Assembly (NCBI GenBank): GCA_050117845.1
Contig: JASFLY010000013.1
Span: forward strand, 6,829-70,828
Source: Candidatus Zixiibacteriota bacterium
GTDB taxonomy: Bacteria; RBG-13-66-14; B26-G2; WVWN01
Length of the DNA stretch: 64,000 bases
Reading direction: 5' to 3'
The position numbers and the translations under genes were made by a program. Below are positions 34,243 to 63,970 of the stretch, in pieces (position 1 is the stretch's first letter; each line of letters starts with the position of its first letter). The notes beneath the pieces were generated by a model. It saw only the letters and a program-made list of their open reading frames with translations. It had not been told where the DNA came from and ran no database searches.

Positions 34243-34243
34243 G

Positions 34244-34951: not shown

Positions 34952-34952
34952 G

Positions 34953-35660: not shown

Positions 35661-35661
35661 A

Positions 35662-36357: not shown

Positions 36358-36358
36358 A

Positions 36359-36907
36359 TTATTTACCTTTCTCTTCCGGCACGTCGGGCCGAATGCCGGT
36401 TTCTATGTCCATGGTCGATGGGTAGGGTTCGACCGTCGCGGCCGTTTCGGCCGAGGCCTCTTCTGAATACGGGTCGTCGGGATAATCGGGGTCGATTCCC
36501 CGGTCTATCGGGTCCTCCTCGGGCCGCGGGGGCTTGCACCCGGAAGCGGCCAGAGCCGCCAGCATAGCGGCCGCCACGGCTCCCAGGAACGCTGGCCGCA
36601 GGCTCGGGCTCACCTTCGTCCGGCCTATGATGGCCCGGAGCTGGTCCTCGGGGACGGCGCCCAGCATCGCGGCCTCGGCCGGCTCGAGCGATAGGCCGAT
36701 GTCTTCGGCCGCCCGGGCCCGTTTGGATAATAATACCTTTTTGAACGCCGGGTCCACCGCCGCCTTCTTCACCAGGACCTCGACGCCGCGCGGGACTTCG
36801 CCCATGCTGCGGCCCGAGCGCGGCGGTTGGCCGCCGACTATCGTCGTCTTCACGACCTCCGGCTCTCCGGGTCGGGCCATCTTCACTCTATCGGTGTGTT
36901 CGCTCAT
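36359..36907 (-). CDS. Paralog P5: TTIVGGQPP N-extension, N-domain, helix ending ...ASGC, acidic/Pro tail only (no globular C-domain)
   Basis: MSEHTDRVKMARPGEPEVVKTTIVGGQPPRSGRSMGEVPRGVEVLVKKAAVDPAFKKVLL.... Tail carries GIDPDYPDDP and GIRPDVPEEKGK. Confidence 0.65.
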   Translation of the reverse strand: MSEHTDRVKMARPGEPEVVKTTIVGGQPPRSGRSMGEVPRGVEVLVKKAAVDPAFKKVLLSKRARAAEDIGLSLEPAEAAMLGAVPEDQLRAIIGRTKVSPSLRPAFLGAVAAAMLAALAASGCKPPRPEEDPIDRGIDPDYPDDPYSEEASAETAATVEPYPSTMDIETGIRPDVPEEKGK

Positions 36908-36917
36908 GCTTCCTCCG

Positions 36918-40621: not shown

Positions 40622-40640
40622 GCCCTCTCTTCGGTAGTAC

Positions 40641-42348: not shown

Positions 42349-42349
42349 A

Positions 42350-42847
42350 TTACCCTCCGTCTTCGCCAGGGTAATCCGGCCGCATTCCGCCTTTCCCCTC
42401 CGTCCCGGACCCGGATTCCCCGACGGGTTCCTCCGCCGTTCCCTCCACGTCGGCGCTGCGTTCATCCCCGGCGGCGGTCTCCGCCGTTTCCGGCGTGGGT
42501 GGGTAGTCCGGGTTGATACCGGTGGGGGGCGCCGGGTACGGCGTATCGTTGGGCGCGGGGTTCTTGCACCCCGCCGCGGCCAGCGCCGCCAGCATCGTCG
42601 CGGCCGCCGCCCCCAGGAACGCGGGGCGGAGTTTCGGGCTCACCTGCGTCCTGTTAATAATGGCCCGCAGTTGGTCCTCGGCGGCGTTGTCGATCAGCGC
42701 CCGTTCGGAAGGCGTAAGGTCGAGGGCGATAATCGCGGCCGCCCCGGAACGTGCCTCGATTAACTTCCTTTTGAAGGCCGGGTCTATCGAGGCTTTTTTT
42801 ATTAACACCTCGACGCCGCGGGGGATTTCGAAGGTGGCCTCGCTCAT
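42350..42847 (-). CDS. Paralog P11: N-domain, helix ending ...AAGC, acidic/Pro tail only. Start set at MSEATFEIPRG.
   Basis: ...EIPRGVEVLIKKASIDPAFKRKLIEARSGAAAIIALDLTPSERALIDNAAEDQLRAIINRTQV.... Tail carries GINPDYPPTPETAETAA and GMRPDYPGEDGG. Confidence 0.6.
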   Translation of the reverse strand: MSEATFEIPRGVEVLIKKASIDPAFKRKLIEARSGAAAIIALDLTPSERALIDNAAEDQLRAIINRTQVSPKLRPAFLGAAAATMLAALAAAGCKNPAPNDTPYPAPPTGINPDYPPTPETAETAAGDERSADVEGTAEEPVGESGSGTEGKGGMRPDYPGEDGG

Positions 42848-42857
42848 ATAGCCTCCA

Positions 42858-43430
42858 TCACGGCCTATCGGGACGGACACCGCGGGTCACGAGGTCGTCC
42901 CTGCCGTCGTCGGCCGTGGCCTGTTCGTCCTTGGCCAGCTCCTCGCCTTCGTCTTCGGCGGGGGGAGCGCCGGTTTCGGGTTCGCTCTCGGCGGTCGTCG
43001 GCCCCTCGACGTCGGGGACGTCGGGCCGGGCGCCGCCGGCGACCGGGGGAAAACATCCCGCCACCGCTATTCCCAGCGCCGCGACGATGACGGCCGCGGA
43101 CCAGCTCAACAGGGCCTTGCGGTGGCCGGGTTCCACCTTGGTATGGTCGACGATGGCCTCGATTTGCGCCGCCGGGGCCGCGCGCAGCATGGCCTCCTCG
43201 GCGGCCTCGAGTTTTAGGCCGATCTCGGCGGCGGCCGCCTCGCGCCGGTCGAGGAGTAGGGCCCGGAACTCCTCGTCGACCGCGGCTTTTTTCATAAGAA
43301 CCTCTACGCCGCCGGGGATCTCGCCCACGGCCTTGCCGCAGCCGGGCGGCCGGCCGCCCACGATTGTGGTCCGTACGGCCGGTTTTTCGACGGGGGAGTC
43401 GCCTTCGTCGCGCGAGGGGATATTCGCCAT
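42858..43430 (-). CDS. Paralog P12 (first gene of operon 1): TTIVGGRPP N-extension, divergent N-domain, acidic/Pro tail ending GVRPDRP
   Basis: MANIPSRDEGDSPVEKPAVRTTIVGGRPPGCGKAVGEIPGGVEVLMKKAAVDEEFRALLL.... Start at ATG 43430 with an AAGGAAGGA RBS; the longer track start is a spurious extension. Confidence 0.65.
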   Translation of the reverse strand: MANIPSRDEGDSPVEKPAVRTTIVGGRPPGCGKAVGEIPGGVEVLMKKAAVDEEFRALLLDRREAAAAEIGLKLEAAEEAMLRAAPAAQIEAIVDHTKVEPGHRKALLSWSAAVIVAALGIAVAGCFPPVAGGARPDVPDVEGPTTAESEPETGAPPAEDEGEELAKDEQATADDGRDDLVTRGVRPDRP

Positions 43431-43484
43431 AACGGTCCTTCCTTGAATCGGTGGATAGGGTCGCCGCCGGGTATAATCATTTAA

Positions 43485-43513
43485 AGTATATACCATCCGG
43501 GGGAATTTGTAAA
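43485..43513 (-). promoter_or_regulatory. Sigma70-like promoter on the minus strand (TTACAA-16-TATACT) for operon P12..P8 and DUF523/1722
   Basis: The reverse complement of the 43431-43600 intergenic region contains ttacaaattcccccggatggtatatact. Confidence 0.45.
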
Positions 43514-43615
43514 GGTAAGGCCTGCGGCGTTTCTTTTGGTATTAATTAGATACGTTAGGGGCCGAAAAGGATTATAAGAATTACGACGGGGCGGCCGCGG
43601 GTGGGCCGTTAACGG

Positions 43616-43644
43616 TTGACATAGCGTTAATATTGGGGCATAAT
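43616..43644 (+). promoter_or_regulatory. Sigma70-like promoter TTGACA-17-CATAAT (divergent from the P12 promoter)
   Basis: Consensus -35 hexamer, 17-nt spacer, and an AAGGAGG RBS before ATG 43666. Confidence 0.5.
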
Positions 43645-43665
43645 TTTAATAAGGAGGTTAGGAAA

Positions 43666-44427
43666 ATGCGAAAATATATCTCCGCAATCGCGTTTCTAAT
43701 TATCGCGTTCACGGCGGGCGCGCTGGCGTGGGGGACTTTGGTTGCGTCTTACCCCTGTCCCGAGGGCTCCCGTTTTCCGAACGGCCTGGCCTTTCGCAAT
43801 AGTCGCCTGTATATCGCGACCAACGACGTTAATTATACGGTATGGCAGGTGCGGCCGAATACGGGCAGCGTCCTCTTGTCCCACCAGGCGCCGTCGCGGC
43901 CTATTATGGGCCTGGCCGCGGGCCTCGCCGGCGAAACCGTTTCGTACTGGATATCTTCGACGAACGGGGCCGGCAGGATATACCAGGTGGGTTATCTCAG
44001 CGGCTCGGTCGTCAATTCTTTCCCGCCGTACGGCTCCCATCCGATGGGCCTCGCTTTCCGGAGCGCGACGCGGATGTACCATACCGACTATAACGCCCGC
44101 AGGCTATTCGTAATACACCCGGTGACCGGGTCCGTTTACGATTCGTACCCCCTCGATTTCGGGCCTTGCGACTGCGCCTACGGCGGCGGGTACCTGTGGA
44201 TAGCCGACGGGTACGGCGAACTGATTCATCAGTGCGATTTGACCGGCTCGACGCTGGCGTCGTTCTCGACGGCGGAGTACGGCTTCTGTTCCGGTTTGGC
44301 CTATTACAATCAATTCGTTTGGGTCGGGATCAACGAACCCATGCATTCGATATTGAAATTCGAGGTCGACCCGTTTCACGCCGTCGAACCGGCGTCGGTG
44401 GGCCGGGTAAAAGCGCTGTTCCGCTGA
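43666..44427 (+). CDS. Hypothetical secreted repeat protein (family with the 1..596 and 45524..46318 genes)
   Basis: Signal peptide MRKYISAIAFLIIAFTAGALA followed by WGTLVASYPCPEG. Recurrent ...TGSV..S(Y/H)... repeats suggest a beta-propeller or beta-rich fold. C-terminus ends ...SVGRVKALFR. Confidence 0.55.
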   Translation: MRKYISAIAFLIIAFTAGALAWGTLVASYPCPEGSRFPNGLAFRNSRLYIATNDVNYTVWQVRPNTGSVLLSHQAPSRPIMGLAAGLAGETVSYWISSTNGAGRIYQVGYLSGSVVNSFPPYGSHPMGLAFRSATRMYHTDYNARRLFVIHPVTGSVYDSYPLDFGPCDCAYGGGYLWIADGYGELIHQCDLTGSTLASFSTAEYGFCSGLAYYNQFVWVGINEPMHSILKFEVDPFHAVEPASVGRVKALFR

Positions 44428-44445
44428 GTTAACCGCCCTGTTATT

Positions 44446-44474
44446 CAAAAGCCGCCCCTCGGGGCGGCTTTATT
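44446..44474. terminator. Bidirectional terminator (GCCGCCCC-TC-GGGGCGGC, flanked by AAAA and TTTATT)
   Basis: A GC hairpin between convergent genes. Confidence 0.6.
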
Positions 44475-44510
44475 CACTAATACGGCTTTTTGCGGGGTCG
44501 CGCCGTCTTA

Positions 44511-44951
44511 CTACTTCTTCTCGAGCCGTTCCGTGCCTGTTTTCGTGCTTCCCTCGTAGGCCGTTATTCCCTCGAGCGAATTGTCCGGGTTGACCGTGTA
44601 CGCGACTACGCCGAGTACGCCGGCCTCGTCCCGATATCCCACGACGAATAAATCTCCCCGCCACAAAGCCACGCCGGGGTAGGCGATCCTGTCGCCCACG
44701 CGGTAGGTAACCCAATATACGTGGCGCCCCGGTTCGACGTCGACTTCGCAGTCGTAGGCGTCGCCGTCCGGGTCGACGCCGCTGCCGGCGTACGTTCCGA
44801 CTATGTCTATTTCGGTTTCGGTGGCCGTTTCGGCGGCCGTCGGGGGAGTCGCGGTCTCGGGTTCGGCCGTGCCCTCGGCCGCCTTGCGGCAAGACGCGGG
44901 GATGACGGCTACCAACGCGACGGCGACGATTATACCGTAAACTTTGTTCAT
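44511..44951 (-). CDS. Hypothetical secreted protein / possible lipoprotein
   Basis: Signal peptide MNKVYGIIVAVALVAVIPASC. Paralog of the 44948..45340 gene, with shared ...GY...G.....Y.V.PD.SL.G.....G....GTE.LEK. Confidence 0.5.
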   Translation of the reverse strand: MNKVYGIIVAVALVAVIPASCRKAAEGTAEPETATPPTAAETATETEIDIVGTYAGSGVDPDGDAYDCEVDVEPGRHVYWVTYRVGDRIAYPGVALWRGDLFVVGYRDEAGVLGVVAYTVNPDNSLEGITAYEGSTKTGTERLEKK

Positions 44952-45340
44952 TGATTATTCCCCCCTGTCCCGTCGGTTTCATCCCTGTATAACTTCTCGG
45001 TACCGATTTCCTTGAAACCCGGCAGGCCGAGAGCTCCGTCCAGCGTGCCGTCCGGCAATATCTTGTAGAGCGCTACGCCGTAACCGATGTGGGCCGCGTA
45101 CCCGACGCATAGGTAACCGTCTTTTATGATGCCGATGCCTTCGTACCCGAATTCATCCTCGAATTCCCAAACTACCCGATAAACCTCCTCGGTTTTATTT
45201 ATATCTACTTTGCAGCCGTACGTGCCCGGTTCGTAGGGACGTTGGCCGAAGCCGGTATACTCGCCCGTGACGTCGTCGGGGGCGGTCGCCGCGAGCGCCA
45301 GCGCCGCCGCGGTTAGAGAGTATAAGATCACTCTTTTCAT
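44948..45340 (-). CDS. Hypothetical secreted protein (paralog of the 44511..44951 gene)
   Basis: Start set at MKRVILYSLTAAALALAATA (ATG 45340). C-terminal ...ILPDGTLDGALGLPGFKEIGTEKLYR aligns with its neighbour. Confidence 0.5.
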   Translation of the reverse strand: MKRVILYSLTAAALALAATAPDDVTGEYTGFGQRPYEPGTYGCKVDINKTEEVYRVVWEFEDEFGYEGIGIIKDGYLCVGYAAHIGYGVALYKILPDGTLDGALGLPGFKEIGTEKLYRDETDGTGGNNQ

Positions 45341-45523
45341 CGGGTGCCTCCTCGCGTTAATAAAGCCAGGGTGAATAATACTAAAATTACGCCCGCGGCG
45401 CAACCCACGCTCGTTCGGTTATAATTTGGGGCGGGATTCATCGCCGCTAAAACCCGGTATCCGGACCTCGTAAAAAAAGAAGCCGCCCCGAGGGACGGCT
45501 TCTCTTTTAGGTCGGGTAATTCT

Positions 45524-46318
45524 TTAGTGGTAAAGGGCTTTGATCTTGCCCGCGGAGGTCGGCGTAACGCTTACGCCGGGACCCGGGCAGTGGACTTTAA
45601 ATACCGCATGGTAACCGGAGGTCGAAGCGAGCCATAGGTACTGGCCGTGGTACGCGAATCCCAGCGCCGGGCCGTTACTGAACGCGAAAGAACCCACGAT
45701 CGAACCGGAGGTGTTACGGCCGTAAATTACGGACCCGTTACGATGCCACATGAGTTCGTTCCGCCAGTCCCAGGCGATGTCGTAACAGCCTGTGGTGGCG
45801 AACGAGCCGTAGACGCTGCCGTTGGTCAGGCTTTGCCGCCAGGTGTAAGCGGGGGAGCTATCGGAAGACAACATATGGGTCGGGGCAGCGCCGCCGTCGG
45901 CGGTCGCCATCGCGGCCAGGCCGCCGTACATGTCATGGCCGGCCGAGAAAGAGGCGTAAGCGCTACCGGTGGTGTAGTTGCAGCGGTAGATGTAGTCGGT
46001 GGAGTAGTTGCCCATCCAGAGGTAGCTGCCGCTGGGGAGGCCGCCGCCGCCGTTGTAGTTGTACGTGAGGCCGCGGGTGTAGCTGCTGTGAGGCGAAACG
46101 TACGAGGCGTATACGGACCCGGTGTCCGCGTTCACACGCCAGATACGACGGTCGCCGGCGTTGCAGTAGAGCCAGAAGTACTGGCTGTTGTTCGCGCGCG
46201 CGGCGGCTATCGGGTAGTTCTCCGGCGCGGCCCATGAGGCGACGATGTCGCCGAGGGCGCCGTACGCCGCACCCGCCACCAACGCGAAAGCTAACGCTAA
46301 TACTACGGATTTCTTCAT
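45524..46318 (-). CDS. Hypothetical secreted repeat protein (family with the 1..596 and 43666..44427 genes)
   Basis: Start moved to MKKSVVLALAFALVAGAAYGALGDIVASWAAPENYP (ATG 46318, AAGGAGGA RBS). ...TGSVYASY... repeats. C-terminus ends ...SAGKIKALYH. Confidence 0.55.
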   Translation of the reverse strand: MKKSVVLALAFALVAGAAYGALGDIVASWAAPENYPIAAARANNSQYFWLYCNAGDRRIWRVNADTGSVYASYVSPHSSYTRGLTYNYNGGGGLPSGSYLWMGNYSTDYIYRCNYTTGSAYASFSAGHDMYGGLAAMATADGGAAPTHMLSSDSSPAYTWRQSLTNGSVYGSFATTGCYDIAWDWRNELMWHRNGSVIYGRNTSGSIVGSFAFSNGPALGFAYHGQYLWLASTSGYHAVFKVHCPGPGVSVTPTSAGKIKALYH

Positions 46319-46680
46319 CTGTGTATCCTCCTTAGTGGTAAGGGACATAAAGTATACCGCAAAAAAGTATAATAACTCGGCCCCGAAGTCAAGCGTTTTT
46401 TTGTGATATATAAAGTTGGTTAACATATGTATATCAGGATACTGTTTACTTGCCGGAAGCGGTATTTCGCAGTAACCCATTTATCGTAACCATTAGCTTT
46501 ATTAGGTCTTTCCGCATTGTCAACGGCGCATACTAAACTTGTCGGCTTTAACTTCGGGTCAGCGGGGCGGCTTAAAAAAAGCCGCGGCCGGGAATGCCAA
46601 TCCCGGTCGCGGTACGATCGTATGTTATTATAATGCAACAGTTTGCGGCGCGGCCTGAACGATATTCCAATATTATGGTA

Positions 46681-49409: not shown

Positions 49410-51659
49410 ATGACCGAAGAAACCACAATATCGCGTGAACCGGAACAGACCCGGGAGCGCCCGACGGGCGGTAAAGCGCGACAAGAACACCGGATGGAGC
49501 CGGTGTTGGAAGACGCCGAAGCCTTCGACCCGAAAGAGTTCGAAGAGTTGGCGGGGTTGTACGAAGACTCGTTTCGCGACATCGAGGAGAACGAGATTGT
49601 TACCGGGACCGTGGTCGCGGTAACCGACGAAGAAGTCCTGGTCGATATCGGATACAAATCCGAGGGGACTATCAACCTGGGCGAGTTCGCCGAAGAGGGG
49701 GCAGTGGAGGTTGGCGATAAGGTAGAGGTTTATCTCGAAAAAAAGGAAGACCAGGACGGCGTCATCGTACTGTCGAAAGAGAAGGCCGATTTCTATCGGG
49801 CCTGGGACCAGGTGCGCGACGTCTATGAAACGGGCGGGGACATCGAAGGACGAATCCTCAACCGGGTACGGGGCGGATTCATCGTCGACATCGGCGTGAA
49901 GGCGTTTCTGCCGGCCTCCCAGCTCGACCTGCGGCCGGTGCGCGATTTCGAGCCGTACATCGGCGAAGCCTTCCGGATGAAAATTATCAAGGTTAACAAG
50001 CGCCGGCGGAACATCGTTCTGTCCCGCAAGGCGCTTTTGATGGAGGAGCGCGAGGAGAAGCGCAAGCGCCTTCTCGAGACCATCGAGGTCGGCGCGGTGC
50101 TGGATGGCGAAGTCAAGAACATCACCGACTTCGGCGCGTTCGTCGACCTGGACGGCCTGGACGGCCTCCTCCATATAACGGACCTCTCCCGCGGCCGGGT
50201 GAACCATCCGTCCGAGGTAGTGTCCGTGGGCGAGAAACTGGAAGTGCTCGTGACCGATTTCGATCCCGAGTCCGGCCGGGTTTCTTTGAGCCTCAAGGAA
50301 CTGCAGGATGACCCGTGGGAAACGGTGGCGAGCCGTTACCACGAGGGCGACCGCGTCATCGGCAAGGTCGTATCCATCGTCGATTACGGCGCGTTCGTCG
50401 AACTCGAACCCGGCGTCGAGGGCCTGATACACGTGTCCGAGATGTCCTGGACCCAGCGCGTGAAGCACCCGTCGAAGGTCCTGTCGGTGGGCGACGAGAT
50501 AGGCGTGGTCATCCTCAAAATTGACGACCAGCACAAACGCATATCACTGGGCCTGCGGCAGACGATGCCCAATCCCTGGGATACCATCGAGGAGCGCTAC
50601 CCGCCCGGCAGTAAGATAAAGGGCCTGGCGAAGAACATCACCGAATTCGGCGTCTTCGTGGAACTCGAAGAGGGCATCGACGGCCTTATTCACATTTCCG
50701 ACATCTCCTGGACCAAGCGCGTTCGCCACCCTTCCGAGGTCTACAAGAAGGGCGACGCCGTCGAGGCGGTCGTGTTGACCATAGACTCCGTCAACCGGCG
50801 CATTTCTTTGGGCGTCAAACAGCTCGAGCGCGACCCCTGGGCCAAGGTGGAGGAGCGGTACCCCGTCGGCGAGTACGTCGAGGGCGACGTCATTCGCGTA
50901 ACGCCGTACGGCGCCATCGTCAAACTCGAGGACGACATTGAGGGCCTGCTTCATATTTCCGAGATAGCCGGCCGCCGGATTAACCGCGTCGAGGACGTAC
51001 TCGACGCCGGCGACCGCATCAAGGTAAAGATAATCAACATCTCGCCCCGCGAGCGCCGCATCAATCTGAGCCTCTGGCAGTATCAGAACGAGACCGGCGA
51101 CAAGGGTATCGATAAGGGCGGCGGCATGGAAACGCTGGCCGCCGAGGAAGCCAAAGCCGCGGCGTCCCTGTCGGCGCCGGACGACGAAGACGAGGAAGAA
51201 GTCGACGACGCCGAATCGGCCGAAGGTGAAGAAGAGGGCGTCGACGCGGAAGAGGCTGAAGAAGTTGAGGCCGAAGCCGAGGCTGAAGAAGTTGAGGCCG
51301 AAGCGTCGCCCGAGGCCGAGGCGGAGACAAGCGAAGCCGAGGCCGAAGAAACCGCGGCCGCGGAAGAGGAAGTCGAAGCCGCCGTTGAGGAAACGGAGGC
51401 CGCGGTCGAAGAGGTTGAAGCCGCCGTCGAGGAAGCTGAGGGCGAGGCCGAAGCCGAGAACGTCGCCGCGGAAGCGGCCGACGAGGCCGAAGAATCTCCC
51501 GAGGCCGAAGCCGAAGCGGCCGAAGAGGTCGAGGAAAGCGCGGCCGAAGAAACCGGAGAAACCGAGGAAGAAACGGAAGAAGCCCCCGCCGAAAGCGGCG
51601 ATGGGGAAGAGGCCGAGACGGCCGAGCCCGAACCCGAATCGGAACCGGAGAAAGAGTAA
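49410..51659 (+). CDS. rpsA: 30S ribosomal protein S1 with a ~200-aa Glu/Ala-rich C-terminal extension
   Basis: Six S1 (OB-fold) repeats (..GTVV.V....V.VDIG.K.EG.I...EF...). The in-frame C-terminal tail EAEAEAEEVEAEASPEAEAE... matches DNA-level GAAG/GCCGA repeats at 51180-51650. Confidence 0.85.
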   Translation: MTEETTISREPEQTRERPTGGKARQEHRMEPVLEDAEAFDPKEFEELAGLYEDSFRDIEENEIVTGTVVAVTDEEVLVDIGYKSEGTINLGEFAEEGAVEVGDKVEVYLEKKEDQDGVIVLSKEKADFYRAWDQVRDVYETGGDIEGRILNRVRGGFIVDIGVKAFLPASQLDLRPVRDFEPYIGEAFRMKIIKVNKRRRNIVLSRKALLMEEREEKRKRLLETIEVGAVLDGEVKNITDFGAFVDLDGLDGLLHITDLSRGRVNHPSEVVSVGEKLEVLVTDFDPESGRVSLSLKELQDDPWETVASRYHEGDRVIGKVVSIVDYGAFVELEPGVEGLIHVSEMSWTQRVKHPSKVLSVGDEIGVVILKIDDQHKRISLGLRQTMPNPWDTIEERYPPGSKIKGLAKNITEFGVFVELEEGIDGLIHISDISWTKRVRHPSEVYKKGDAVEAVVLTIDSVNRRISLGVKQLERDPWAKVEERYPVGEYVEGDVIRVTPYGAIVKLEDDIEGLLHISEIAGRRINRVEDVLDAGDRIKVKIINISPRERRINLSLWQYQNETGDKGIDKGGGMETLAAEEAKAAASLSAPDDEDEEEVDDAESAEGEEEGVDAEEAEEVEAEAEAEEVEAEASPEAEAETSEAEAEETAAAEEEVEAAVEETEAAVEEVEAAVEEAEGEAEAENVAAEAADEAEESPEAEAEAAEEVEESAAEETGETEEETEEAPAESGDGEEAETAEPEPESEPEKE

Positions 51660-54822: not shown

Positions 54823-54878
54823 ACCGACCTACGCGTAATTAACCTTGATTTGCGTCGATAATATCTTTATATTATACT

Positions 54879-55184
54879 ATGAGGATAGGCTACGTTGTCG
54901 GTATGGTGGTTTCGACGGTCAAGGACGAGGGGATTAGGGGCCTGAAGCTCCTCCTCGTCGAAGACTGCGACATTAACGGCCGCGGCCGTGGCACTTATTA
55001 CGTCGCCGCCGACGCCGTGGGAGCCGGGAAGGGAGAGGTCGTGTTGACCGCGGCCGGTTCTTCCGCCCGGCAAACCGAGATGACCCGCAACCGGCCCGTC
55101 GACGCCGTCGTAATGGCCATAGTGGAATCGGTGGAGGCCGACGGCGAAATAAGCTATCGCAAGAGCGCCGGGGTGCCCCGGTGA
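54879..55184 (+). CDS. BMC vertex protein (EutN/CcmL/PduN family), paralog 1 of 3
   Basis: [29 protein letters not shown]...[25 protein letters not shown]...[11 protein letters not shown] matches the EutN/CcmL consensus (M.I..V.G.VVST.K...L.G.KLL.V......VA.D.VGAG.GE.VL...GS.AR...P.DA.V.AIV). Confidence 0.75.
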
Positions 55185-55462
55185 GGGCGGGGCGAGTGAT
55201 AGGGTGCGTCGTCGCGACGCGGGTATACGAGGGCCTGGAGGGCAGGAAGCTGCTTCTGGTTGACCCCATCGACGCCGAGGACGAAGTGGACGGCGAGCCG
55301 TTCGTGGCGTGCGACGTAGTGGGGGCGGGCCCCGGGTCCCGGGTTATCTGGCTGGGCGGCCGGGAGGCCTCGCTGGCGCTGGACCCGCCCGGCGGGCCGG
55401 TGGACGCGACCTGCGTCGCGATTCTGGAGCGGCACGGCGGCGTTAAAGGGGAAGACTTCTAA
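55181..55462 (+). CDS. BMC vertex protein (EutN/CcmL family), paralog 2 of 3
   Basis: [29 protein letters not shown]...[27 protein letters not shown]...[11 protein letters not shown]. Confidence 0.7.
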
Positions 55463-55725
55463 TGGAACTGGGACGCGTGGTAGGCCCCGCGCCGTCGACG
55501 GTGAAACATCCTAAATTGGAAGGTTTGAAACTGCTCATGGTCGAACCGGAGGGCGGAAGCGGCGGGGGAGCGGTAATCGCCTGGGACCTGGTCGACGCGG
55601 GCCGCGGCGACCGGGTGTTGATAATGCGGGAAGGGGGCGCCGCCATTCGGCTGCTGGGCCGGGGGGAAGCGCCCGTAAGGACCGTACTGGTAGGACACGT
55701 CGAGAGAGTAGATGGCCCCGAGTAA
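55462..55725 (+). CDS. BMC vertex protein (EutN/CcmL family), divergent paralog 3 of 3
   Basis: [29 protein letters not shown]...VIAWDLVDAGRGDRVLIMREGGAAIRLL...PVRTVLVGHVE. Confidence 0.65.
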   Translation: MELGRVVGPAPSTVKHPKLEGLKLLMVEPEGGSGGGAVIAWDLVDAGRGDRVLIMREGGAAIRLLGRGEAPVRTVLVGHVERVDGPE

Positions 55726-57427
55726 AACGACGACCGGCGTAACGGTGGACCGCGGCGTAGGCCGCGGGGCCACGTTCGCGTCCATTACCGGCCGCATCGG
55801 CATCGAAGAGGCGAACGAACTCCAGCGCCGCTTCGACGAGGTCTTCAAGGCCGGCCGGCCCTGGGTCATTATCAGCATGAGGGACGTGGACTTCATTTGT
55901 TCCGCCGGCATGGGGACGCTGCTCTCCGCCGTCGGGGAATCCCGCAAGAGCGGCGGCGAGGTCATCTTCACCGACGTGTCGGCCAAGGTCCGGACCATAT
56001 TCGAGTTCCTGGACATCTGGGACTACATCACGACCGCTCCGGACAAGGACGCGGCCCTCGAGATGGTTACGGCGGGGAAGCGGATACAAGCCCGCCAGGC
56101 CGCGGCCGTACTCACGCCGTCCTTCATCGCCGACGACCTCAAGGCGAAATTGAACGCCGGCGTCCGCCTGAGCAAAGAGGGCAAACTAAAGGACGCGCTC
56201 GCGTACCTGAACGCCGTCCTCAAATCGGAAAAAGACAACGTCTCGGCGCTGACCTGGAAGGCGAACGTCCTCGAGCGGCTGGGCCAGTTGGGCGAGGCGC
56301 GGCGCCTGTACCGCCGCGTTTGCGAGATAGGCCGGGGCGACCGCCAACTTCTGGCGTACGCCCGCAACCGCTTCGAGAAGCTGAACCAGAAGCTGGACCA
56401 GGCCGCGGACCGGGACCGCGTTTACGATCAATTAAAAGACTACGTTCGGGAGCTGGCCCGCGCGCCCGTCGGGACGCCGGACTTCCTGAAGCCCCGCCGC
56501 ACCGTCGAGGAGGGGCGCGGCCCCTTCCTGGAGTGGTGCCGCACGTGGGACGACAACCCGCTTTACGGGAACGACAGCCTGGGCCGGAACCTGGCCACCG
56601 GCGGGGGCATGTTCCTCTGGGCCGGCGGCCGCGGAATAGTGGTGGACCCCGGGAAAAACTTCGTCGCCCGCTTCGCGGCGGCCGGGTACCGCCTGGTGGA
56701 TATCGACGCCATCGTCGTGACCAGCGTCGCCTGGGACCACAACGCCGACCTCGAGCCGTTGGTGGAAGTGATAAGCCGATACAATAAGGCGGGGGTGGGG
56801 CCGGTCAAACGGGTCGAGACCTTCGTCAACGCCGGCGTGTATAAGAGGAACTACTCGTGGCTTTCGGCCGCCAAGGACGCGGTTTCGAAACTCACGGTGC
56901 TGTACCCGGGGCACGCCTACCGCATCGGCACCGCGGCGCTCGACGTCAAACCGGCCGATGTCCCGGAGGCTCGCGAAGACGACGTATTGGGTTTCATCCT
57001 GACGGCGGGGGACGGCAGCATCGGTTACGTGGCCGACGCCGGCTGTCGGGACGTGGACGTCCTCGCGGCCCAGTATCGGGGGGCGCGGGGCAGGCCGCTC
57101 GTAGCTTACGTCGGCGGCGCGTACGCCGACGAAAACGTTAAAAAATGGTATGGGGATTATTTGGGCGTGGAAGCGCTGAGTCGCCTGCTGTCGGACGTCA
57201 GGCCGCAGGTGGCCTTGCTCGGGAAGGTGGCCGACGTGCCCGACCCGGTTAAACTGGGCGCGGCTATAACGAAGGCCACCAACGTCCGGTGTGTCCCTCT
57301 GGACGTGGGGTTCCGCGTCAACGTTGAAACATCGGAAGCCTATATTGGCGAGGGAGCGGTATCTCTGAGCAGCCTGGAGGTCGGCCTGTCCGGAGACGGA
57401 CGGCTGGCGTATAAGAAAAGAGATTAA
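55712..57427 (+). CDS. STAS (anti-sigma-factor-antagonist-like) domain protein fused to a TPR-like helical region and a degenerate MBL-fold-like C-terminal domain
   Basis: N-terminus ...VIISMRDVDFICSAGMGTLLSAVGESRKSGGEVIFTDVSAKVRTIFEFLDIWDYI is SpoIIAA/STAS-like. Middle region has TPR-like helices. C-terminal region has VDPG...VVTSVAWDHNADL at the position of the MBL HxHxDH motif, but the His residues are absent. Confidence 0.5.
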   Translation: MAPSKTTTGVTVDRGVGRGATFASITGRIGIEEANELQRRFDEVFKAGRPWVIISMRDVDFICSAGMGTLLSAVGESRKSGGEVIFTDVSAKVRTIFEFLDIWDYITTAPDKDAALEMVTAGKRIQARQAAAVLTPSFIADDLKAKLNAGVRLSKEGKLKDALAYLNAVLKSEKDNVSALTWKANVLERLGQLGEARRLYRRVCEIGRGDRQLLAYARNRFEKLNQKLDQAADRDRVYDQLKDYVRELARAPVGTPDFLKPRRTVEEGRGPFLEWCRTWDDNPLYGNDSLGRNLATGGGMFLWAGGRGIVVDPGKNFVARFAAAGYRLVDIDAIVVTSVAWDHNADLEPLVEVISRYNKAGVGPVKRVETFVNAGVYKRNYSWLSAAKDAVSKLTVLYPGHAYRIGTAALDVKPADVPEAREDDVLGFILTAGDGSIGYVADAGCRDVDVLAAQYRGARGRPLVAYVGGAYADENVKKWYGDYLGVEALSRLLSDVRPQVALLGKVADVPDPVKLGAAITKATNVRCVPLDVGFRVNVETSEAYIGEGAVSLSSLEVGLSGDGRLAYKKRD

Positions 57428-57482
57428 CGGTACCGTTTTCCAGGACTTACGGCGTCGCCGGGGTCTTTTCCGGAAGGGTGAT

Positions 57483-57866
57483 ATGAAGGACTTCAAGATA
57501 AGCAGAGTAGAAGACGGTAAAAACGGCGTCGTGGTGGTGGCGGTCGAAGGTCAGGTCGGCATCGAAGAAGCGGCGCAGGTCTCGAAATTTTTCGAGGAGC
57601 TTGAGAACGAGGGCGTCATATGGGTCGTCGTCAACCTCAAGGGCGTCGACTTCATTAGCACCGCCGGCGTGGGGGCTTTGCTTTACGCCGTGGGTGGCGC
57701 TCGGAAACGGGGCGGCGAGATAGTCTTTATCGAATTTTCGCCCAAGACGAAAGCCGTATTCGAGTTCCTCGACCTGCACGACTTTATCGTCACCGCTGCG
57801 GATCGCGACGGCGGCCTGGGCATAATCAAGGAAATACAAAGCGGCGCCCGGCCGGCAGGCGGCTAA
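57483..57866 (+). CDS. STAS-domain protein (anti-sigma factor antagonist family)
   Basis: VWVVVNLKGVDFISTAGVGALLYAVGGARKRGGEIVFIEFSPKTKAVFEFLDLHDFI matches the STAS fold pattern. Confidence 0.65.
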   Translation: MKDFKISRVEDGKNGVVVVAVEGQVGIEEAAQVSKFFEELENEGVIWVVVNLKGVDFISTAGVGALLYAVGGARKRGGEIVFIEFSPKTKAVFEFLDLHDFIVTAADRDGGLGIIKEIQSGARPAGG

Positions 57867-57933: not shown

Positions 57934-60165
57934 CTAAAGCGTAACTTTGTAGATTACGCCCTCTCGTAACACCTCGATCTCCGCGCCGAGAGCGAAATAC
58001 GGCGCGAGGTCGGGGTGTTTTTCTATTAGTTTGAAGTATTCGTCGCTCGCGAACTCGACCACGACCGTGTCGGCCTCCGGCCCCTCGTCGAGCGCGATGT
58101 CCCGCCATACGCCGCCCGCCCGGCGGAAACTCTTTCCGGCCACGAAGCGCGCGCCGTCGCCGTCTCCATAGGCCGAACCGGCCACCGCCGCTTCCTTGAA
58201 GCCGCCGATGGTCTTGGATTCGCGGACCGATAGTTCGTCCCGGGACTTCGGCGCCGAGTAGACTATACCCGGCGTCCTGACCAACTCCGCCCCGGCCATC
58301 CACCGTCCGGCCGTACCGGCGTCCTCGCTCGTCATGGCGCCGACTTTACCCCATACCGTGGGGGAAGGCCGCGATATGGACGTGCCGGCGTCCTCGACCA
58401 GGTACGACGTATAGGGGGTCGGGATGCCGTAACGCTTGGACAGCGCGACTATGGAATCGACGAGTTCTTTGTCCTCGCCCTCGAGTTTGATTTGCTCGAG
58501 GAGGAAGCCTATCTTGCGCGTCGCCCACAGCGCGGCGATGTACGGGTTGTCCCGGCTCTCGCCCGCCACCGCGGCCAGTTCGTAGCGGAAGCTTTCGCGG
58601 CGGCCGGCGCGCTCGCCCGAAAGGGTCAACGCGCCGTCGGCCAACTCACCCTTGAAGCGGCCGAAGAGCGTTAGCTGCGTACCGGCGAAGATGTCGGGCA
58701 GCGCGGGCGGGTAGGCGTCGTAGCACTCGACGTTCTCCCACGCCAGCTCCACATCCGTGAGGACCGGCCGGGATATTTTATCGTAGAACGACGTTACGGC
58801 GAGTTCCAGGTCCTCGCCCGGTTCCACGTACTGCGCGGTGCCGCCGTTCTTCCGGGAGAGGTCGTCCAGAAGCTCCGTGCGGACCTTGTAGCCCACGCCG
58901 AACGAGAAGATGCGGGCGTCCGCGCTCTCGTTGGCGGCCCGGGCGTTGGCCACGATGTCCGGGACGTTGCGCTCGCCGACCGTCGGTTTGCCGTCGGTCA
59001 GAAAAACCACCATCGTCGGCCCCACGGCCTCGGCGGACGCGGAAGCGAGGCCCTTGCCCAGCGCTCCGTCGATATTGGTCCCGCCGCCGGCGGTGAGCTT
59101 TTTCACGAAGGCCAGGCCGGCGTCGACGTTCGCCTTGGTCGCCGGGACCGTCTCGTCGCGGAAGAGCGTCGGCTGTTCGTTGAAGGGGATGATGTTGAAC
59201 CGGTCCCCGGGGCCGAGCTGGTTCAGGCAATAGGACGCGGCCTCCCGGACCTGCTCAATTTTGTCCCCGGCCATGGAGCCGGATACGTCCACGACGAAGA
59301 TAACTTCCTTGGGTTCGGGGGACGACTCGGCCGCGGCCGGCGGCGTTAGCACCAGCAGCAGGTAGCCGTCCTCGCCGCCTTCGCGGTGGGCCAGGACGCT
59401 CGCGCCCACTTCGGCGTCGCCCGGCGCGTAATAGAGGACGAAGTCCTGGGAGGGTTTTACGTCCTCGACGTGGTACCGGACGGAAGCGGCGTTCGGGGTT
59501 TTGCGTTCGAGTTTAACCTTGTGGGACGGTGAGAAGACGCTGTCGATGGCGCTCTCGGTTTTAATGTCGACCCGCACGTCCACGTCCTCGATGGGCTGGC
59601 GGCTGAAGCGTTCAGTATCCAGCGGGTACACGAACTTTACCAGGCCGCCGTCGTACGGCAACAGCTCCGAATACGTTATCTCGACGCGCTTCTCACCCTC
59701 CGCCGGAATGGGGTATATCCGCGCCTTCACGGCGCCCCGGCCTATGTACTCCAGGAGGGCCGGGTCCTGGTTTTTATTGACGAGCGAGCGGTATTCGACC
59801 GCCGCCTCGGCCGCGTCGAGCATCTCGCCCTCCACCGGCTTCCCGTCCACCTTGAGCGAAAAGCGGTCTATCGCCGCGCCTTTGGGCAGCGGGAAAATAT
59901 ACGTACCCTCGAGGTCGAAGCTGTACGGATTCTCGAACACCTCGTCGACGTGGGTAGTCCCGACCTGTCCCTCGATGACCGTCTCGACGCGGTGATACTT
60001 GATGTCGAGGCTGTACGGTTCGGGCCGGGTTCCGGGGTGGGGCCAGGGGGGGCTGGGTTGACGGTAAGGCCAGGGGATGATAATGCCGTCGGCGGCGCCG
60101 ACGGCCGGGAGGACGATTAAAAGTACGGCCAGCGTCAACACGTGCCGGGATAATTTGCGCCACAT
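57934..60165 (-). CDS. Secreted VIT domain plus von Willebrand factor type A domain protein
   Basis: Signal peptide. VIT-like N-terminus (YSLDIKYHRVETVIEGQVGTTHVDEVFENP). vWA MIDAS motif IFVVDVSGSM...TNIDGAL...FLTDGKPT. Confidence 0.7.
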   Translation of the reverse strand: MWRKLSRHVLTLAVLLIVLPAVGAADGIIIPWPYRQPSPPWPHPGTRPEPYSLDIKYHRVETVIEGQVGTTHVDEVFENPYSFDLEGTYIFPLPKGAAIDRFSLKVDGKPVEGEMLDAAEAAVEYRSLVNKNQDPALLEYIGRGAVKARIYPIPAEGEKRVEITYSELLPYDGGLVKFVYPLDTERFSRQPIEDVDVRVDIKTESAIDSVFSPSHKVKLERKTPNAASVRYHVEDVKPSQDFVLYYAPGDAEVGASVLAHREGGEDGYLLLVLTPPAAAESSPEPKEVIFVVDVSGSMAGDKIEQVREAASYCLNQLGPGDRFNIIPFNEQPTLFRDETVPATKANVDAGLAFVKKLTAGGGTNIDGALGKGLASASAEAVGPTMVVFLTDGKPTVGERNVPDIVANARAANESADARIFSFGVGYKVRTELLDDLSRKNGGTAQYVEPGEDLELAVTSFYDKISRPVLTDVELAWENVECYDAYPPALPDIFAGTQLTLFGRFKGELADGALTLSGERAGRRESFRYELAAVAGESRDNPYIAALWATRKIGFLLEQIKLEGEDKELVDSIVALSKRYGIPTPYTSYLVEDAGTSISRPSPTVWGKVGAMTSEDAGTAGRWMAGAELVRTPGIVYSAPKSRDELSVRESKTIGGFKEAAVAGSAYGDGDGARFVAGKSFRRAGGVWRDIALDEGPEADTVVVEFASDEYFKLIEKHPDLAPYFALGAEIEVLREGVIYKVTL

Positions 60166-60267: not shown

Positions 60268-61062
60268 TCAGGCTTCACGGTCGCGCAAGCGCTCGAGGAC
60301 CTGGCGCACGATTTCGCGCACGGTTTCGTCGTCCGGGGCGGCCGCGGGATTAACGCCGGCGACGGAGGAATCGGGGGGAGAGTTTGAGGAGGCGGGGGCC
60401 GGGGCCGCTTCGCACATTATTCTCAACGGGGGCTGGCCCGGGCCGCGGGCCGTCAGTTTCTCGACGTCGTCGACGGTCAGCACCGATACGTGGCCGAGTT
60501 GACGGGCGACCAGCATCACCTGGGCGAACTGCTCCACCTTCTCCAGCGTGAAGTACGCCGCCTCCAGCGTCGCCCCCAGCGTAACCGTGCCGTGGTTGGC
60601 GAGGAGGAGGGCGTTATGGTCGCGCAGATGGGGCCGGATACTCTCGGGCACTTCGTCCGTGGACGGGGTGGCGTACGGCGCCAGCGGGACGTTGCCCAGC
60701 GTCGATACTATCTCGGGCAGAACGCACTCGGCGAGGGGCATCCGGGCGACGGCGAATCCGGTGGCGATGGGGGGGTGGGCGTGAACGACGCCGCCCACGT
60801 CGCTCCGTTCTTTGTATATCTCGAGGTGGAGAAGGATCTCGCTGGAGGCGTCACGCTTGCCTTCGACCCGCCGGCCGTCGAGGTCGAGGATTACTATGTC
60901 CTCGGCCTCCATCATGCCCTTGCACATTCCGGCGGGCGTCGCCGCGACGAAACCGTCGCCCACGCGGCAACTCATATTGCCGTCCGAGGCCGCAACGAAG
61001 CCCTTCTCGTAGCAGCGGCGGCCTATTTCGACGATTTCCCGGCGAGCTTGCCATATATTCAT
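60268..61062 (-). CDS. Class II aldolase/adducin-family protein (fuculose-1-phosphate aldolase-like)
   Basis: VAASDGNMSCRV..., GGVVHAHPPIATGFAV, NHGTVTLGATLEAAY - the class II aldolase fold with a metal-binding His cluster. Confidence 0.75.
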   Translation of the reverse strand: MNIWQARREIVEIGRRCYEKGFVAASDGNMSCRVGDGFVAATPAGMCKGMMEAEDIVILDLDGRRVEGKRDASSEILLHLEIYKERSDVGGVVHAHPPIATGFAVARMPLAECVLPEIVSTLGNVPLAPYATPSTDEVPESIRPHLRDHNALLLANHGTVTLGATLEAAYFTLEKVEQFAQVMLVARQLGHVSVLTVDDVEKLTARGPGQPPLRIMCEAAPAPASSNSPPDSSVAGVNPAAAPDDETVREIVRQVLERLRDREA

Positions 61063-61400: not shown

Positions 61401-62606
61401 TTAGGGCGAGTAGACCATAGTTTTGACGAAACGCTCTCCCGCCGCTTCCATGGTGCAAAGGTAGACGCCGGGGGCGACTTTCCCCGGCCGCCAGTCGACG
61501 TCGTGGATCCCCGGGGGATATATCCGGTCGGCGAGGGTCGTTACCTTGCGGCCGCTGAGGTCGTAGACCGCCAGGTGAACGCGGGCCGAAACGTCACAGG
61601 CGAACGTTATAGTCGTATATTTGTCGACCGGGTTGGGCCGGTTCTGAGCCAGGCGGAAGGCCCGGGGTTTGACCGAGGCCGGCGGGGGGCCGGGGGCGAA
61701 ACCGGCGAGGGCCGTGTCCGCGTTGGCGAGTAACTCCTCCAGGTCGGCCCCCGCCACGAGCGCGAATGTGATGCGCTGTCGCTGGTTCGGGGCGAGGGAG
61801 AACGGGCCGGTGCACAGCATGAAACGCCAGTCGTAGGGTTCCGTACGGACGCAATCGAATTTAGGTTGTCGCATGTATTCGAAGATGACGGCTTCGACCT
61901 CGGGGTCGTTTTTGATATCCCAGGCGTACGCGCTGTGGGGGCGGGCGTCCACGCACAGCAAGCCGATATAGGGGTTGCCGGCATCGTGGTCGTACATGTA
62001 CGGCATGGCCCTTTCTTCGTCGAAGCCGACGCAGTCCTCGATATAGGAGAATGAGCCACCGATGTCGAGGTCGTAGGAGAGGGAAAAATAAGCGTCGTCG
62101 ATCCGTTGCGCGTTATCGTTGGTCAAGTAGTAGCGAAGGCCGACTATGTCTTCGGCGTCGGGCGTCGCCCAACTCATTCCGTGAAACTCGCACGTAACGG
62201 GGATGGGGCCGTTCTGGCCGGCGTGACCGTCGTCCATTCGGAAGTAGGAATCGAGAGTGCCCGTGCGGTGGACGTACGAGGGGACTTCCGACCATTCGGG
62301 GTCGTCCGACATGATGACCGGCGTAACGTCGTTCCATTCCCGGCCGCCGGAGAGGTGCAGGTCGTTTCCGAGCATCGTCCCGAACCATATATCGCCGTAG
62401 TAGATGTGGGCCGGGCCGCTCGGGGCGGGATAAATGCCGGTTTCGTAAACGTAACCCTGGTTATATATTTCGAGCCAAAACAGGCCGTCGTCGAGTATTC
62501 CGGAGTAGCCGTAATCCTCCGAGAGCGGCCCTGCGGACTTCGCCGGCGCCTGTACCGCGAACACGGCGCACGCCAGAGCGACCGTGGCGAACAATCTCGC
62601 GTTCAT
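61401..62606 (-). CDS. Secreted protein with a T9SS-type (Por secretion) C-terminal sorting domain
   Basis: Signal peptide MNARLFATVALACAVFAVQA. C-terminal ~80 aa LAQNRPNPVDKYTTITFACDVSARVHLAVYDLSGRKVTTL...PGVYLCTMEAAGERFVKTMVY matches the T9SS CTD / FlgD-Ig-like pattern (QNYPNPFN..T.I.F.L.....V.L.VYD..GR.V..L......G.....W......G..L.SGVYF.RL.A.G.....KM). Confidence 0.55.
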   Translation of the reverse strand: MNARLFATVALACAVFAVQAPAKSAGPLSEDYGYSGILDDGLFWLEIYNQGYVYETGIYPAPSGPAHIYYGDIWFGTMLGNDLHLSGGREWNDVTPVIMSDDPEWSEVPSYVHRTGTLDSYFRMDDGHAGQNGPIPVTCEFHGMSWATPDAEDIVGLRYYLTNDNAQRIDDAYFSLSYDLDIGGSFSYIEDCVGFDEERAMPYMYDHDAGNPYIGLLCVDARPHSAYAWDIKNDPEVEAVIFEYMRQPKFDCVRTEPYDWRFMLCTGPFSLAPNQRQRITFALVAGADLEELLANADTALAGFAPGPPPASVKPRAFRLAQNRPNPVDKYTTITFACDVSARVHLAVYDLSGRKVTTLADRIYPPGIHDVDWRPGKVAPGVYLCTMEAAGERFVKTMVYSP

Positions 62607-63221: not shown

Positions 63222-63602
63222 CTACGGTTTTTCGGCCTCGGCGGGGAGAGTGAAAGTGAAGGGATAACGTACGGTAACGGGGTCGCCGGAAGCCGGCCCG
63301 AAGTCCCATTGCGCGACCGCGGCGGCCACGGCGTCCTCGAACAGTTCACAATTCGTAGTCGCTTCCGCGACCTCGCTTGCGATAACGGCTCCCGTGCGGG
63401 CGATCGTGAACTTCACGACGACGGTGCCCTCCAGGCCCAGGCCCGCGTCGAGGTAGGTGTTATAGATGTCCGTTATCTCCGCTTTATGCTGGTCGATGAC
63501 GCGACCTATGTTATCGGGATCGCGGCCCTCGGCCGCGAGGGCGGGGCCGTATAAAACGGCTATGGCGGCGAGCGTTATAGCTATTGACCTGAGCTGCCTC
63601 AT
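63222..63602 (-). CDS. Small exported TonB_C-like domain protein
   Basis: Signal peptide plus GTVVVKFTIARTGAVIASEVAEATTNCELFEDAVAAAVAQWDFGPASGDPVTVRYPFTF. Resembles the C-domains of paralogs P8-P10. Confidence 0.5.
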   Translation of the reverse strand: MRQLRSIAITLAAIAVLYGPALAAEGRDPDNIGRVIDQHKAEITDIYNTYLDAGLGLEGTVVVKFTIARTGAVIASEVAEATTNCELFEDAVAAAVAQWDFGPASGDPVTVRYPFTFTLPAEAEKP

Positions 63603-63970
63603 TGTTTGCTGTAGAAAATGAACGGGTAGGTGAGCGTTACGTCGTTGGTGGCCGGCGTGAACACCCAGCGCTCCACCGCCCGGACGAGCGCGATTTCCAG
63701 CACCTGTACGTTGATGGTCGATTCGACGACCTCGACGGCGCCGACGTTCCCGGCGGCCGTGATGGTGAAGCGGACTTTTAGTTTGCCCGAGGCCTCGGGG
63801 AAACGATTCAAGAAGTTTACGTAAACCTCTTCGAGCTCTTTTTGTTTAATCTTGATCTCGGCCTGGATGTCGTCCGCCGTGCGGACGCCCCCGGCTTTCA
63901 TCTTCGTCGGCGCGGCGGTTTCCCCTCCGACGTCGACCGTCGTCGCGATGGTCACGGCGGTGCGCGCCAT
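63599..63970 (-). CDS. Small TonB_C-like domain protein (tandem with the 63222..63602 gene; 5' end may extend beyond the window)
   Basis: GKLKVRFTITAAGNVGAVEVVESTINVQVLEIALVRAVERWVFTPATNDVTLTYPFIF. Its start/stop overlaps the neighbour (ATGA). Confidence 0.45.
   Translation of the reverse strand: MARTAVTIATTVDVGGETAAPTKMKAGGVRTADDIQAEIKIKQKELEEVYVNFLNRFPEASGKLKVRFTITAAGNVGAVEVVESTINVQVLEIALVRAVERWVFTPATNDVTLTYPFIFYSKQ

Follow-up and report, generated by a model that had tools for sequence, protein, structure and literature searches.

Vertex-protein triplet and the coupled STAS genes

The DNA analysed here, a 64,000-nucleotide stretch of contig JASFLY010000013.1 from a Candidatus Zixiibacteriota bacterium (hereafter the window), contains a five-gene module in which three genes for vertex proteins of bacterial microcompartments (BMCs) are followed, on the same strand, by two genes for STAS-domain proteins. 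We label the three genes for pentamer-forming vertex proteins (BMC-P) P1, P2 and P3, the gene that combines STAS, TPR and degenerate metallo-β-lactamase (MBL) domains STM, and the small STAS gene STAS2. The original prediction had described three consecutive EutN/CcmL open reading frames (ORFs) at 54879-55725, overlapping by 1-4 nt; both the positions and the family were borne out, with all three proteins passing the PF03319 gathering score of 25 bits. The module and the site upstream of it comprise the following features:

54845-54873, + strand: promoter-like site (TTGATT-17-TATATT) located where an AT-rich gap separates gpsA from P1, from a consensus scan with 9 of 12 positions matching (a consensus match only)
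54879-55184, + strand: P1, canonical BMC-P vertex pentamer subunit by sequence, 101 aa (PF03319, 95.4 bits)
55181-55462, + strand: P2, specialised BMC-P paralogue, 93 aa, with a GTG start (PF03319, 83.0 bits)
55462-55725, + strand: P3, specialised BMC-P paralogue, 87 aa (PF03319, 65.3 bits)
55712-57427, + strand: STM, 571 aa, with a STAS domain (residues ~19-120), a TPR region (~139-250) and an MBL-fold domain without metal ligands (~270-571), from Pfam and AlphaFold2 (AF2)
57483-57866, + strand: STAS2, 127 aa, a single STAS domain (PF01740, 48 bits)

The reading frames of the first four genes interlock. The GTG start of P2 lies within the stop of P1 (GTGA, a 4-nt overlap), P2 and P3 share one nucleotide at their junction (TAATG), and the ATG of STM lies 14 nt before the P3 stop; the module as a whole is predicted to be translationally coupled. 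Upstream, the −10-like element of the promoter-like site ends 6 nt 5′ of the P1 ATG and no Shine–Dalgarno sequence is visible, so the operon transcript may be leaderless.

BMC-P genes are most often found either alone or in threes, the latter being a standard copy with two special paralogues, and such triplets are common (PMC8217296). On sequence grounds, P1-P2-P3 is a canonical triplet of this kind, with one standard member and two divergent paralogues. The PF03319 matches of the three proteins span model positions 1-82 of 83, and their matches among solved structures in the PDB are pentamers only, the best of them scoring 100.6 bits for P1, 41.5 for P2 and 38.6 for P3. Over a gapless alignment of 94 aa, P1 shows 60% identity to 5V74, the pentamer that caps the H. 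ochraceum shell, and it keeps the conserved blocks of that protein, including NRPVDA..MAIVE. The third ORF had been singled out as the divergent one; this description fits P3 but not P3 alone, as P2 is a divergent paralogue too.

A scan of the genome collection with a profile of the P3 alignment yielded 28 loci, and relatives' loci were viewed over ±10 kb. Of the 28, 10 are from the lineage of the window; the other 18, with 39-49% identity, represent Myxococcales/Deltaproteobacteria, Calditrichota, Chloroflexota, Gemmatimonadota and Bacteroidota. P1, P2 and P3 are each reciprocal best matches to separate genes in four outside loci (L022, L037, L038 and L039), as are P2 and P3 in loci of the HO type. 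The P1 orthologue is the BMC-P gene adjoining the gene for the shell hexamer (BMC-H) in L022, L037 and L038 (95-98 bits). P2 pairs with the leading member of the BMC-P pair that sits beside an aldolase gene in L017, L029 and L034-L036, all from Myxococcales/Deltaproteobacteria, and likewise finds its reciprocal best match in L022 and L037-L039. P3 shares the motif AGxGDRVL(I/V)MREG with its orthologues in HO-type, Calditrichota (FRAG3-like), Chloroflexota SPU and ACI loci; the mean column identity of the P3 orthologue alignment (n=16) is 83%, and the AF2 monomer model of P3 made from 16 aligned sequences is of low confidence (pLDDT 57.7). Sutter 2021 describes the triplet as one standard pentamer joined by a 'grey' and an 'orange' special one; the members here were matched to those of other triplet-bearing types through reciprocal best matches. 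Automatically annotated NCBI proteins identical to P1, P2, P3 and STAS2 exist (MGD8718968.1-970.1 and 972.1), and the 571-aa MGD8718971.1 falls into the same 90% cluster as STM.

The architecture of STM is supported by Pfam matches to STAS (41 bits), TPR_16/19 and Lactamase_B_2 (39.9 bits) and by an AF2 model (pLDDT 81) in which the STAS domain is followed by helical TPR and, at the C-terminus, by an MBL fold. The top Foldseek matches of this model are YhfI, ElaC, RNase Z and PhnP (TM-score 0.83 and E ~1e-14 for YhfI/ElaC). The HxHxDH motif is absent from the MBL domain, where the region reads TSVAWDHNAD, and none of its His residues is invariant in 21 homologues. Because the motif is gone and no invariant His is left, we do not class the domain as an active MBL hydrolase; a binding module without catalysis is the best reading. 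The STAS domain of STM is near-invariant across the 21 homologues, including Ser64 at the position of SpoIIAA Ser58. STAS2 matches the STM STAS domain at 97 bits, identifying the two as paralogues, and carries a Thr at the SpoIIAA phospho-serine position that is invariant in 9 orthologues.

Homologues of STM form 34 clusters at 90% identity, all with the full architecture and 45-70% identical to STM. A HMMER search of 1.84 billion representatives recovered three close STM representatives, then two remote full-length ones (28-29% identity) and, beyond these, a large family of TPR + Lactamase_B_2 proteins matching the TPR-MBL part only. Contexts for STM were drawn from metagenome, metagenome-assembled genome (MAG) and closed-genome loci (L001-L016 and L040-L054). 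All contexts examined have STM next after P3, the start of the one overlapping the stop of the other, and STAS2 next after STM; P3 lies directly 5′ of STM on every sufficiently long contig, and STM was found without the triplet in none of the ~30 contexts. An apparent P3-STM deletion in CAZWAM01 (L006/L018) was rejected as a run of N in the assembly. A close relative carrying the module is a closed chromosome of 2,345,002 bp, CP070633.1, labelled Candidatus Coatesbacteria. NCBI labels disagree within this one lineage, with L008/L011 (CP070633.1) assigned to Candidatus Coatesbacteria and others to Candidatus Zixiibacteriota or simply 'bacterium' (L014, L015 and the source MAG of the window).

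Across the main lineage, synteny covers the whole region from rpsA to the aldolase gene. The remote STM relative P0206 (28% identity) lies on a contig of 52.8% GC (L055) that carries P1-like, P2-like, P3-like, STM-like and STAS2-like genes; there the P3-like and STM-like genes overlap by 7 nt, the upstream neighbour differs from that of the main lineage, and the STM-like protein likewise lacks the HxHxDH motif. Because this contig keeps the five-gene module although most sequence identity has been erased, the survival of the module across such divergence argues for functional coupling over inherited synteny, on the evidence of one short contig.

The module genes are intact in >25 contigs, with STM identity falling to 44% within the lineage and to 28% outside it, and they are under purifying selection. 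Median ratios of nonsynonymous to synonymous substitution rates (dN/dS) are ~0.14 for P1, ~0.20 for P2, ~0.10 for P3 and ~0.10 for STAS2, compared with 0.15 for gpsA; for all six genes they lie at 0.10-0.20, in the manner of gpsA, these being rough values with synonymous sites near saturation (pS ~0.62).

The class II aldolase and its C-terminal tail

A class II aldolase gene 4.5 kb downstream of the triplet had been flagged in the original prediction, and its relevance was confirmed by two properties of the protein, namely its membership in a BMC-associated clade and an encapsulation-peptide-like tail. The two features are:

60268-61062, − strand: class II aldolase, 264 aa, candidate encapsulated cargo (PF00596, 165 bits)
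60277-60330, − strand: encapsulation-peptide-like amphipathic helix, residues ~245-262 of the aldolase, DETVREIVRQVLERLRDR, from conservation and hydrophobic moment

The zinc-binding and catalytic residues of the aldolase are intact (SSE, HAHPP and ANHG are present). Its C-terminus extends by ~50 residues, made up of a variable linker of ~30 aa and a conserved amphipathic helix whose hydrophobic moment is among the highest in the protein. The helix reads DETVREIVRQVLERLR in the window, the lineage consensus being DDALVREAVRRVLERLR; it is kept in all nine lineage orthologues of the aldolase while the linker varies. Relatives from complete BMC loci carry similar tails (ESLVQEVLAEIARRR; EIRLTYRELSALIEDAIRSLR), and the best out-of-lineage aldolases among the matches listed (45-57% identity, 256-355 aa) all have a C-terminal extension of like kind. 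The tails of the ACI and MUF2 aldolases have been called encapsulation peptides (PMC8217296), and by its sequence the tail described here looks like one. A profile of the aldolase tail, run against all ORFs of the window and of the related loci, found no second protein with the same tail. As for the linker (60331-60447, − strand), most relatives carry a CxxC or multi-Cys motif in it (PCEACN; SCLSCGAC; APAPIC..CQVV in the ACI type), with P0136, P0144, L001 and L009 as examples, and the aldolase of the window has lost this motif (MCEAAP).

The genomic settings of these relatives link the aldolase to the triplet. All three of the out-of-lineage aldolases that were looked up sit in complete BMC loci, beside P2-P3 or BMC-H, and on L040, of all in-lineage contigs the most divergent, STAS2 and the aldolase gene are direct neighbours in convergent orientation, with zero genes between them. 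Because the listed aldolase relatives that were looked up lie in complete BMC loci, and because of the adjacency on L040, the triplet and the aldolase are, judged by orthology, a piece of a standard metabolosome; hexamers/trimers, AldDh and PTAC are the components that this site lacks.

Several of the loci that hold P2 and P3 orthologues illustrate the arrangement in full. Five loci from Myxococcales/Deltaproteobacteria carry P2-like, P3-like and class II aldolase genes in that order, which matches the HO type I satellite. L037 and L038 run PTAC, BMC-H, BMC-H, P1-like, aldehyde dehydrogenase (AldDh), PduS-like, BMC-T, P2-like, P3-like and aldolase. L039, from Vicinamibacterales, is of the ACI type, with aldolase, BMC-H, three BMC-P and a 2-hydroxyacid dehydrogenase. 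L022 is a complete SPU-type locus from Chloroflexota with RpiB, DeoC, P1-like, AldDh, BMC-H, P2-like and P3-like. Among the relatives of P3 in Calditrichota and Myxococcales, most are without BMC-H within 10 kb. One Calditrichaceae locus (L033) has a STAS ORF near its BMC-P gene, which we treated as a chance occurrence: the STAS protein is generic, and a phosphomutase gene and another gene lie between.

Shell hexamers missing from the window and the surrounding genes

Of 62 genes called in the window, 56 were scanned against Pfam; the six outside the scan include 18192-18452 (− strand), 34953-36357 (− strand) and some ORFs among 15023-15619, 15802-16878, 18759-19346 and similar. The original prediction that the window holds neither a hexamer gene (PF00936) nor aldehyde dehydrogenase or PTAC withstood Pfam, tblastn and a hidden Markov model (HMM) of BMC-H. 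There is no PF00936 hexamer in the 64 kb, where tblastn with five BMC-H proteins gave a best E of 0.09; the BMC-H HMM, for which six BMC-H sequences were used and which picked up the hexamers of control loci, had zero matches in the window, the genes outside the Pfam scan included. Neither Aldedh nor PTAC occurs among the 56 scanned proteins. A BMC locus directly beyond the window, of which this stretch might have been the edge, was not found in relatives out to +10 kb. The Pfam-scanned genes are of housekeeping or envelope type, among them a tRNA synthetase, ScpAB, Cmk, LpxB/K, an MsbA-like protein, KdtA and BamA, and further genes encode ThiC, FTHFS, RpsA, Der, PlsY, GpsA and TonB_C paralogues.

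A satellite or fragmented BMC locus is defined by a single class of shell gene together with further shell loci elsewhere in the genome (Axen 2014; Sutter 2021), and the shell genes here are indeed of the PF03319 class only. The original prediction regarded a pentamer-only locus as unusual and several BMC-P copies as a PVM trait, and on these two points it has to be revised. Triplet-only loci are known from FRAG6 and FRAG7, with hexamers elsewhere in the genome, and the HO type I satellite consists of two BMC-P and a pfam00596 aldolase (PMC8217296, Suppl. Data 2 for the latter); loci with pentamer genes alone thus follow an established pattern. Nor is the triplet specific to PVM, its closest complete relatives among the loci found here being ACI, SPU, the HO satellites and the locus type of L037/L038. 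The prediction thus stands as regards BMC-P identity, the missing hexamer, the relevance of the aldolase and the lack of a described BMC role for the STAS proteins, and falls as regards rarity and PVM specificity. Two catalogue entries were considered and set aside. The label 'fragmented (sat) (omitted)' was rejected as a FRAG assignment, being a generic label in the portions of PMC8217296 drawn on here, where it is also given to incomplete assemblies and to Synechococcus PCC 7335; and Zixibacteria RBG_16_53_22, catalogued there with BMC-P and PduT-like trimers, could not be tied to this locus type. Literature searches on pentamer-only genomes, and on Coatesbacteria in connection with microcompartments, returned nothing relevant.

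Between STAS2 and the aldolase lies one further gene:

57934-60165, − strand: VIT-VWA protein with a signal-peptide-like N-terminus (Pfam VIT and VWA), of uncertain membership in the system

This gene occupies the same place in most relatives and is absent from L040; on L055 a VIT-VWA gene (1-1965, + strand) lies upstream of the module on the same strand. The protein is of a secreted type, and its link to a microcompartment is not obvious. Upstream of the module, ribosomal protein S1 (49410-51659, + strand) ends in a Glu/Ala-rich, acidic low-complexity tail of ~190 aa, its orthologues measuring 621-778 aa. At 33523-38463 (− strand) stand seven tandem genes for proteins of ~180-280 aa, which look from their sequences like a paralogous array; CarboxypepD_reg was found in four of the five scanned (34953-35660 and 35662-36357 being outside the scan). 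Five TonB_C genes occur in the 64 kb (17066-17788, 19350-19763, 41512-42465, 63222-63602 and 63599-63970), the last two adjoining each other at the window end, and proteins sorted by the type IX secretion system (T9SS) lie near TonB_C genes (61401-62606). Some 18 window genes are without a Pfam match at E<=1e-5 (5028-7468, 15023-16878, 18759-22829, 25312-26793 and 40196-46480), including those for a 698-aa and a 493-aa protein on either side of bamA.

A probable dispersed metabolosome, its alternatives and its relation to known systems

We consider the locus to be, probably, the vertex-plus-cargo part of a dispersed metabolosome whose hexamers and enzymatic core are encoded elsewhere, with STM and STAS2 acting post-translationally on the pentamers or on the tagged cargo. 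The locus would then encode a full BMC vertex set, the canonical pentamer P1 plus the specialised P2 and P3, and its signature cargo would be the class II aldolase, targeted through the C-terminal encapsulation peptide. Going by its family, the aldolase would split a deoxy-sugar phosphate (fuculose- or rhamnulose-1-phosphate) into dihydroxyacetone phosphate and an aldehyde, and the metabolosome would be kin to the HO, ACI, MUF2 and PVM group. Dispersed BMC loci are common in related candidate phyla (PMC8217296); in this Coatesbacteria/Zixibacteria-like lineage the organelle genes would be similarly scattered, and BMC-H, BMC-T and the aldehyde-processing core would lie at other sites in the genome. 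The STAS proteins, encoded on the same translationally coupled transcript, would be dedicated partners of the vertex proteins and may serve, post-translationally, as an assembly chaperone, an adaptor or a capping switch. Because each keeps a conserved Ser or Thr, the STAS domains may be phospho-switchable, and the TPR and dead MBL domains of STM could act as docking surfaces, retaining or handing over either pentamers or the aldolase with its helical tag.

Several observations weigh against this proposal. PF00936 is missing from −55 kb to +6 kb, the reach of the window, and from within ±10 kb on ~30 related contigs. In the parts of the PMC8217296 trees consulted, there is no Coatesbacteria hexamer or trimer, and Coatesbacteria BMC-P (for example from Coatesbacteria 4484_99) figure in the portions of that source used here only as 'fragmented (sat) (omitted)'. 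As for the partners of a phospho-switch, no kinase/anti-sigma factor (HATPase_c), PP2C phosphatase or sigma factor is found in the 56 scanned window proteins or in the Pfam lists of related loci. In-lineage adjacency is weak evidence by itself, the synteny being region-wide, and the argument for coupling leans on L055, one 4.7-kb contig. Finally, no physical link between a STAS protein and BMC-P is known in the literature searched.

In a different reading, BMC-H and BMC-T are wholly lacking from the lineage, and the pentamers, STM, STAS2 and the tagged aldolase form some other assembly, for example on a scaffold of the TPR and pseudo-MBL domains, with no closed shell. Such a hexamer-independent system, which we regard as unlikely, would account for the absence of PF00936 from both the 64-kb window and the ~30 related contexts, for the retention of the five-gene module as a unit, under purifying selection, in two divergent lineages, and for STM as a lineage-specific invention strictly tied to the triplet. 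Yet P1 retains the sequence of a shell-capping pentamer, as its 60% identity to 5V74 attests; its out-of-lineage orthologues and those of P2 and P3 are all in BMC types that have hexamers; and the encapsulation-peptide-like tail implies a lumen as its target. Moreover, the absence of hexamers has been seen locally only, and related candidate phyla often have their BMC loci dispersed.

A second alternative treats STM and STAS2 as an ordinary partner-switching (anti-sigma antagonist) circuit that plays no part in the microcompartment and merely happens to lie downstream of the triplet. The phospho-acceptor Ser and Thr are typical of SpoIIAA/RsbV, the synteny from rpsA to the aldolase gene across the main lineage could have preserved an inherited adjacency, and no STAS gene lies beside the P3 orthologues of other phyla, the L033 case being two genes apart. 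Set against this are the start/stop overlap of P3 and STM, kept in all lineages; the order P1-P2-P3-STM-STAS2 on L055, in spite of 28% STM identity and another upstream gene; and the facts that STM was never found without the triplet and that a cognate kinase, phosphatase or sigma gene is not nearby. We accordingly think it improbable that the STAS genes are unrelated neighbours.

That the locus is a decaying remnant, the BMC having been lost and the triplet and aldolase tail drifting toward loss, is very improbable, for although BMC-H, AldDh and PTAC of L037/L038 are missing at this locus, the genes are intact in >25 contigs, the tail helix is conserved while the linker varies, and dN/dS values of 0.10-0.20, gpsA-like if rough, led us to reject the pseudogene reading.

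Within the proposal of a dispersed metabolosome, or beside it, a more specific and speculative idea concerns the STAS proteins. Many BMCs have three pentamer paralogues although twelve pentamers suffice, a surplus that has gone unexplained (PMC8217296). It is conceivable, if doubtful, that the triplet does more than cap a shell and forms, with STM and STAS2, a phospho-regulated vertex module. This would be either a switch that holds and releases pentamers, thereby opening and closing a microcompartment, or, should the genome truly be without hexamers, a hexamer-free minimal enzyme complex of the TPR/pseudo-MBL scaffold, the pentamers and the helix-tagged aldolase; if true, both versions would explain what the 'extra' pentamer paralogues are for. 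In any case, the triplet-STAS operon supplies concrete candidate partners for the pentamers in two divergent lineages, and a BMC module with a plausible cargo is now documented for Coatesbacteria/Zixibacteria-like bacteria.

Vertex-only loci and the link to an aldolase are of known kinds, while the fixed association in which a STAS/TPR/pseudo-MBL gene and a second STAS gene accompany a BMC-P triplet is undescribed as far as the literature searched shows. The original prediction that these STAS proteins have no known role in BMC biology agrees with this: no publication linking STAS to BMCs was found, and none that discusses these proteins.

Among known systems, the HO type I satellite comes close. 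Like the present locus it is free of hexamers, P2 and P3 are orthologous to its two pentamers, and its aldolase is homologous (127-150 bits); in the HO type more broadly, some aldolases bear an encapsulation-peptide-like tail, and the shell pentamer shares 60% identity with P1. The satellite differs in that here P1 is part of the operon, two STAS genes are inserted and 4.5 kb separate the operon from the aldolase gene, which is encoded on the other strand. FRAG6 and FRAG7 share a BMC-P triplet standing alone at one site, in FCB-type or candidate-phylum genomes, but according to their description have neither identifiable enzymes nor encapsulation-peptide matches, whereas here an aldolase with an encapsulation-peptide-like tail is nearby. 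The ACI and MUF2/PVM types share a BMC-P triplet and, among the matches listed, the closest out-of-lineage aldolases (45-57% identity) with the same linker-and-helix tail; those loci, however, hold BMC-H, MUF2/PVM and L037/L038 also have AldDh and PTAC, and STAS genes are present in none of them.

For the STAS proteins the nearest models are the SpoIIAA/RsbV antagonists, with which they share the STAS fold (Pfam and NCBIfam) and a phospho-acceptor position occupied by Ser in STM and by Thr in STAS2; unlike those antagonists, the STAS domain of STM shares its polypeptide with TPR and a dead MBL domain, and both STAS genes are co-translated with BMC-P. The TPR and MBL part of STM matches hundreds of TPR + Lactamase_B_2 proteins of 600-900 aa, and the fold of its model is that of the MBL phosphodiesterases YhfI, ElaC and PhnP; in contrast to both groups, STM has lost the HxHxDH motif and gained an N-terminal STAS domain.

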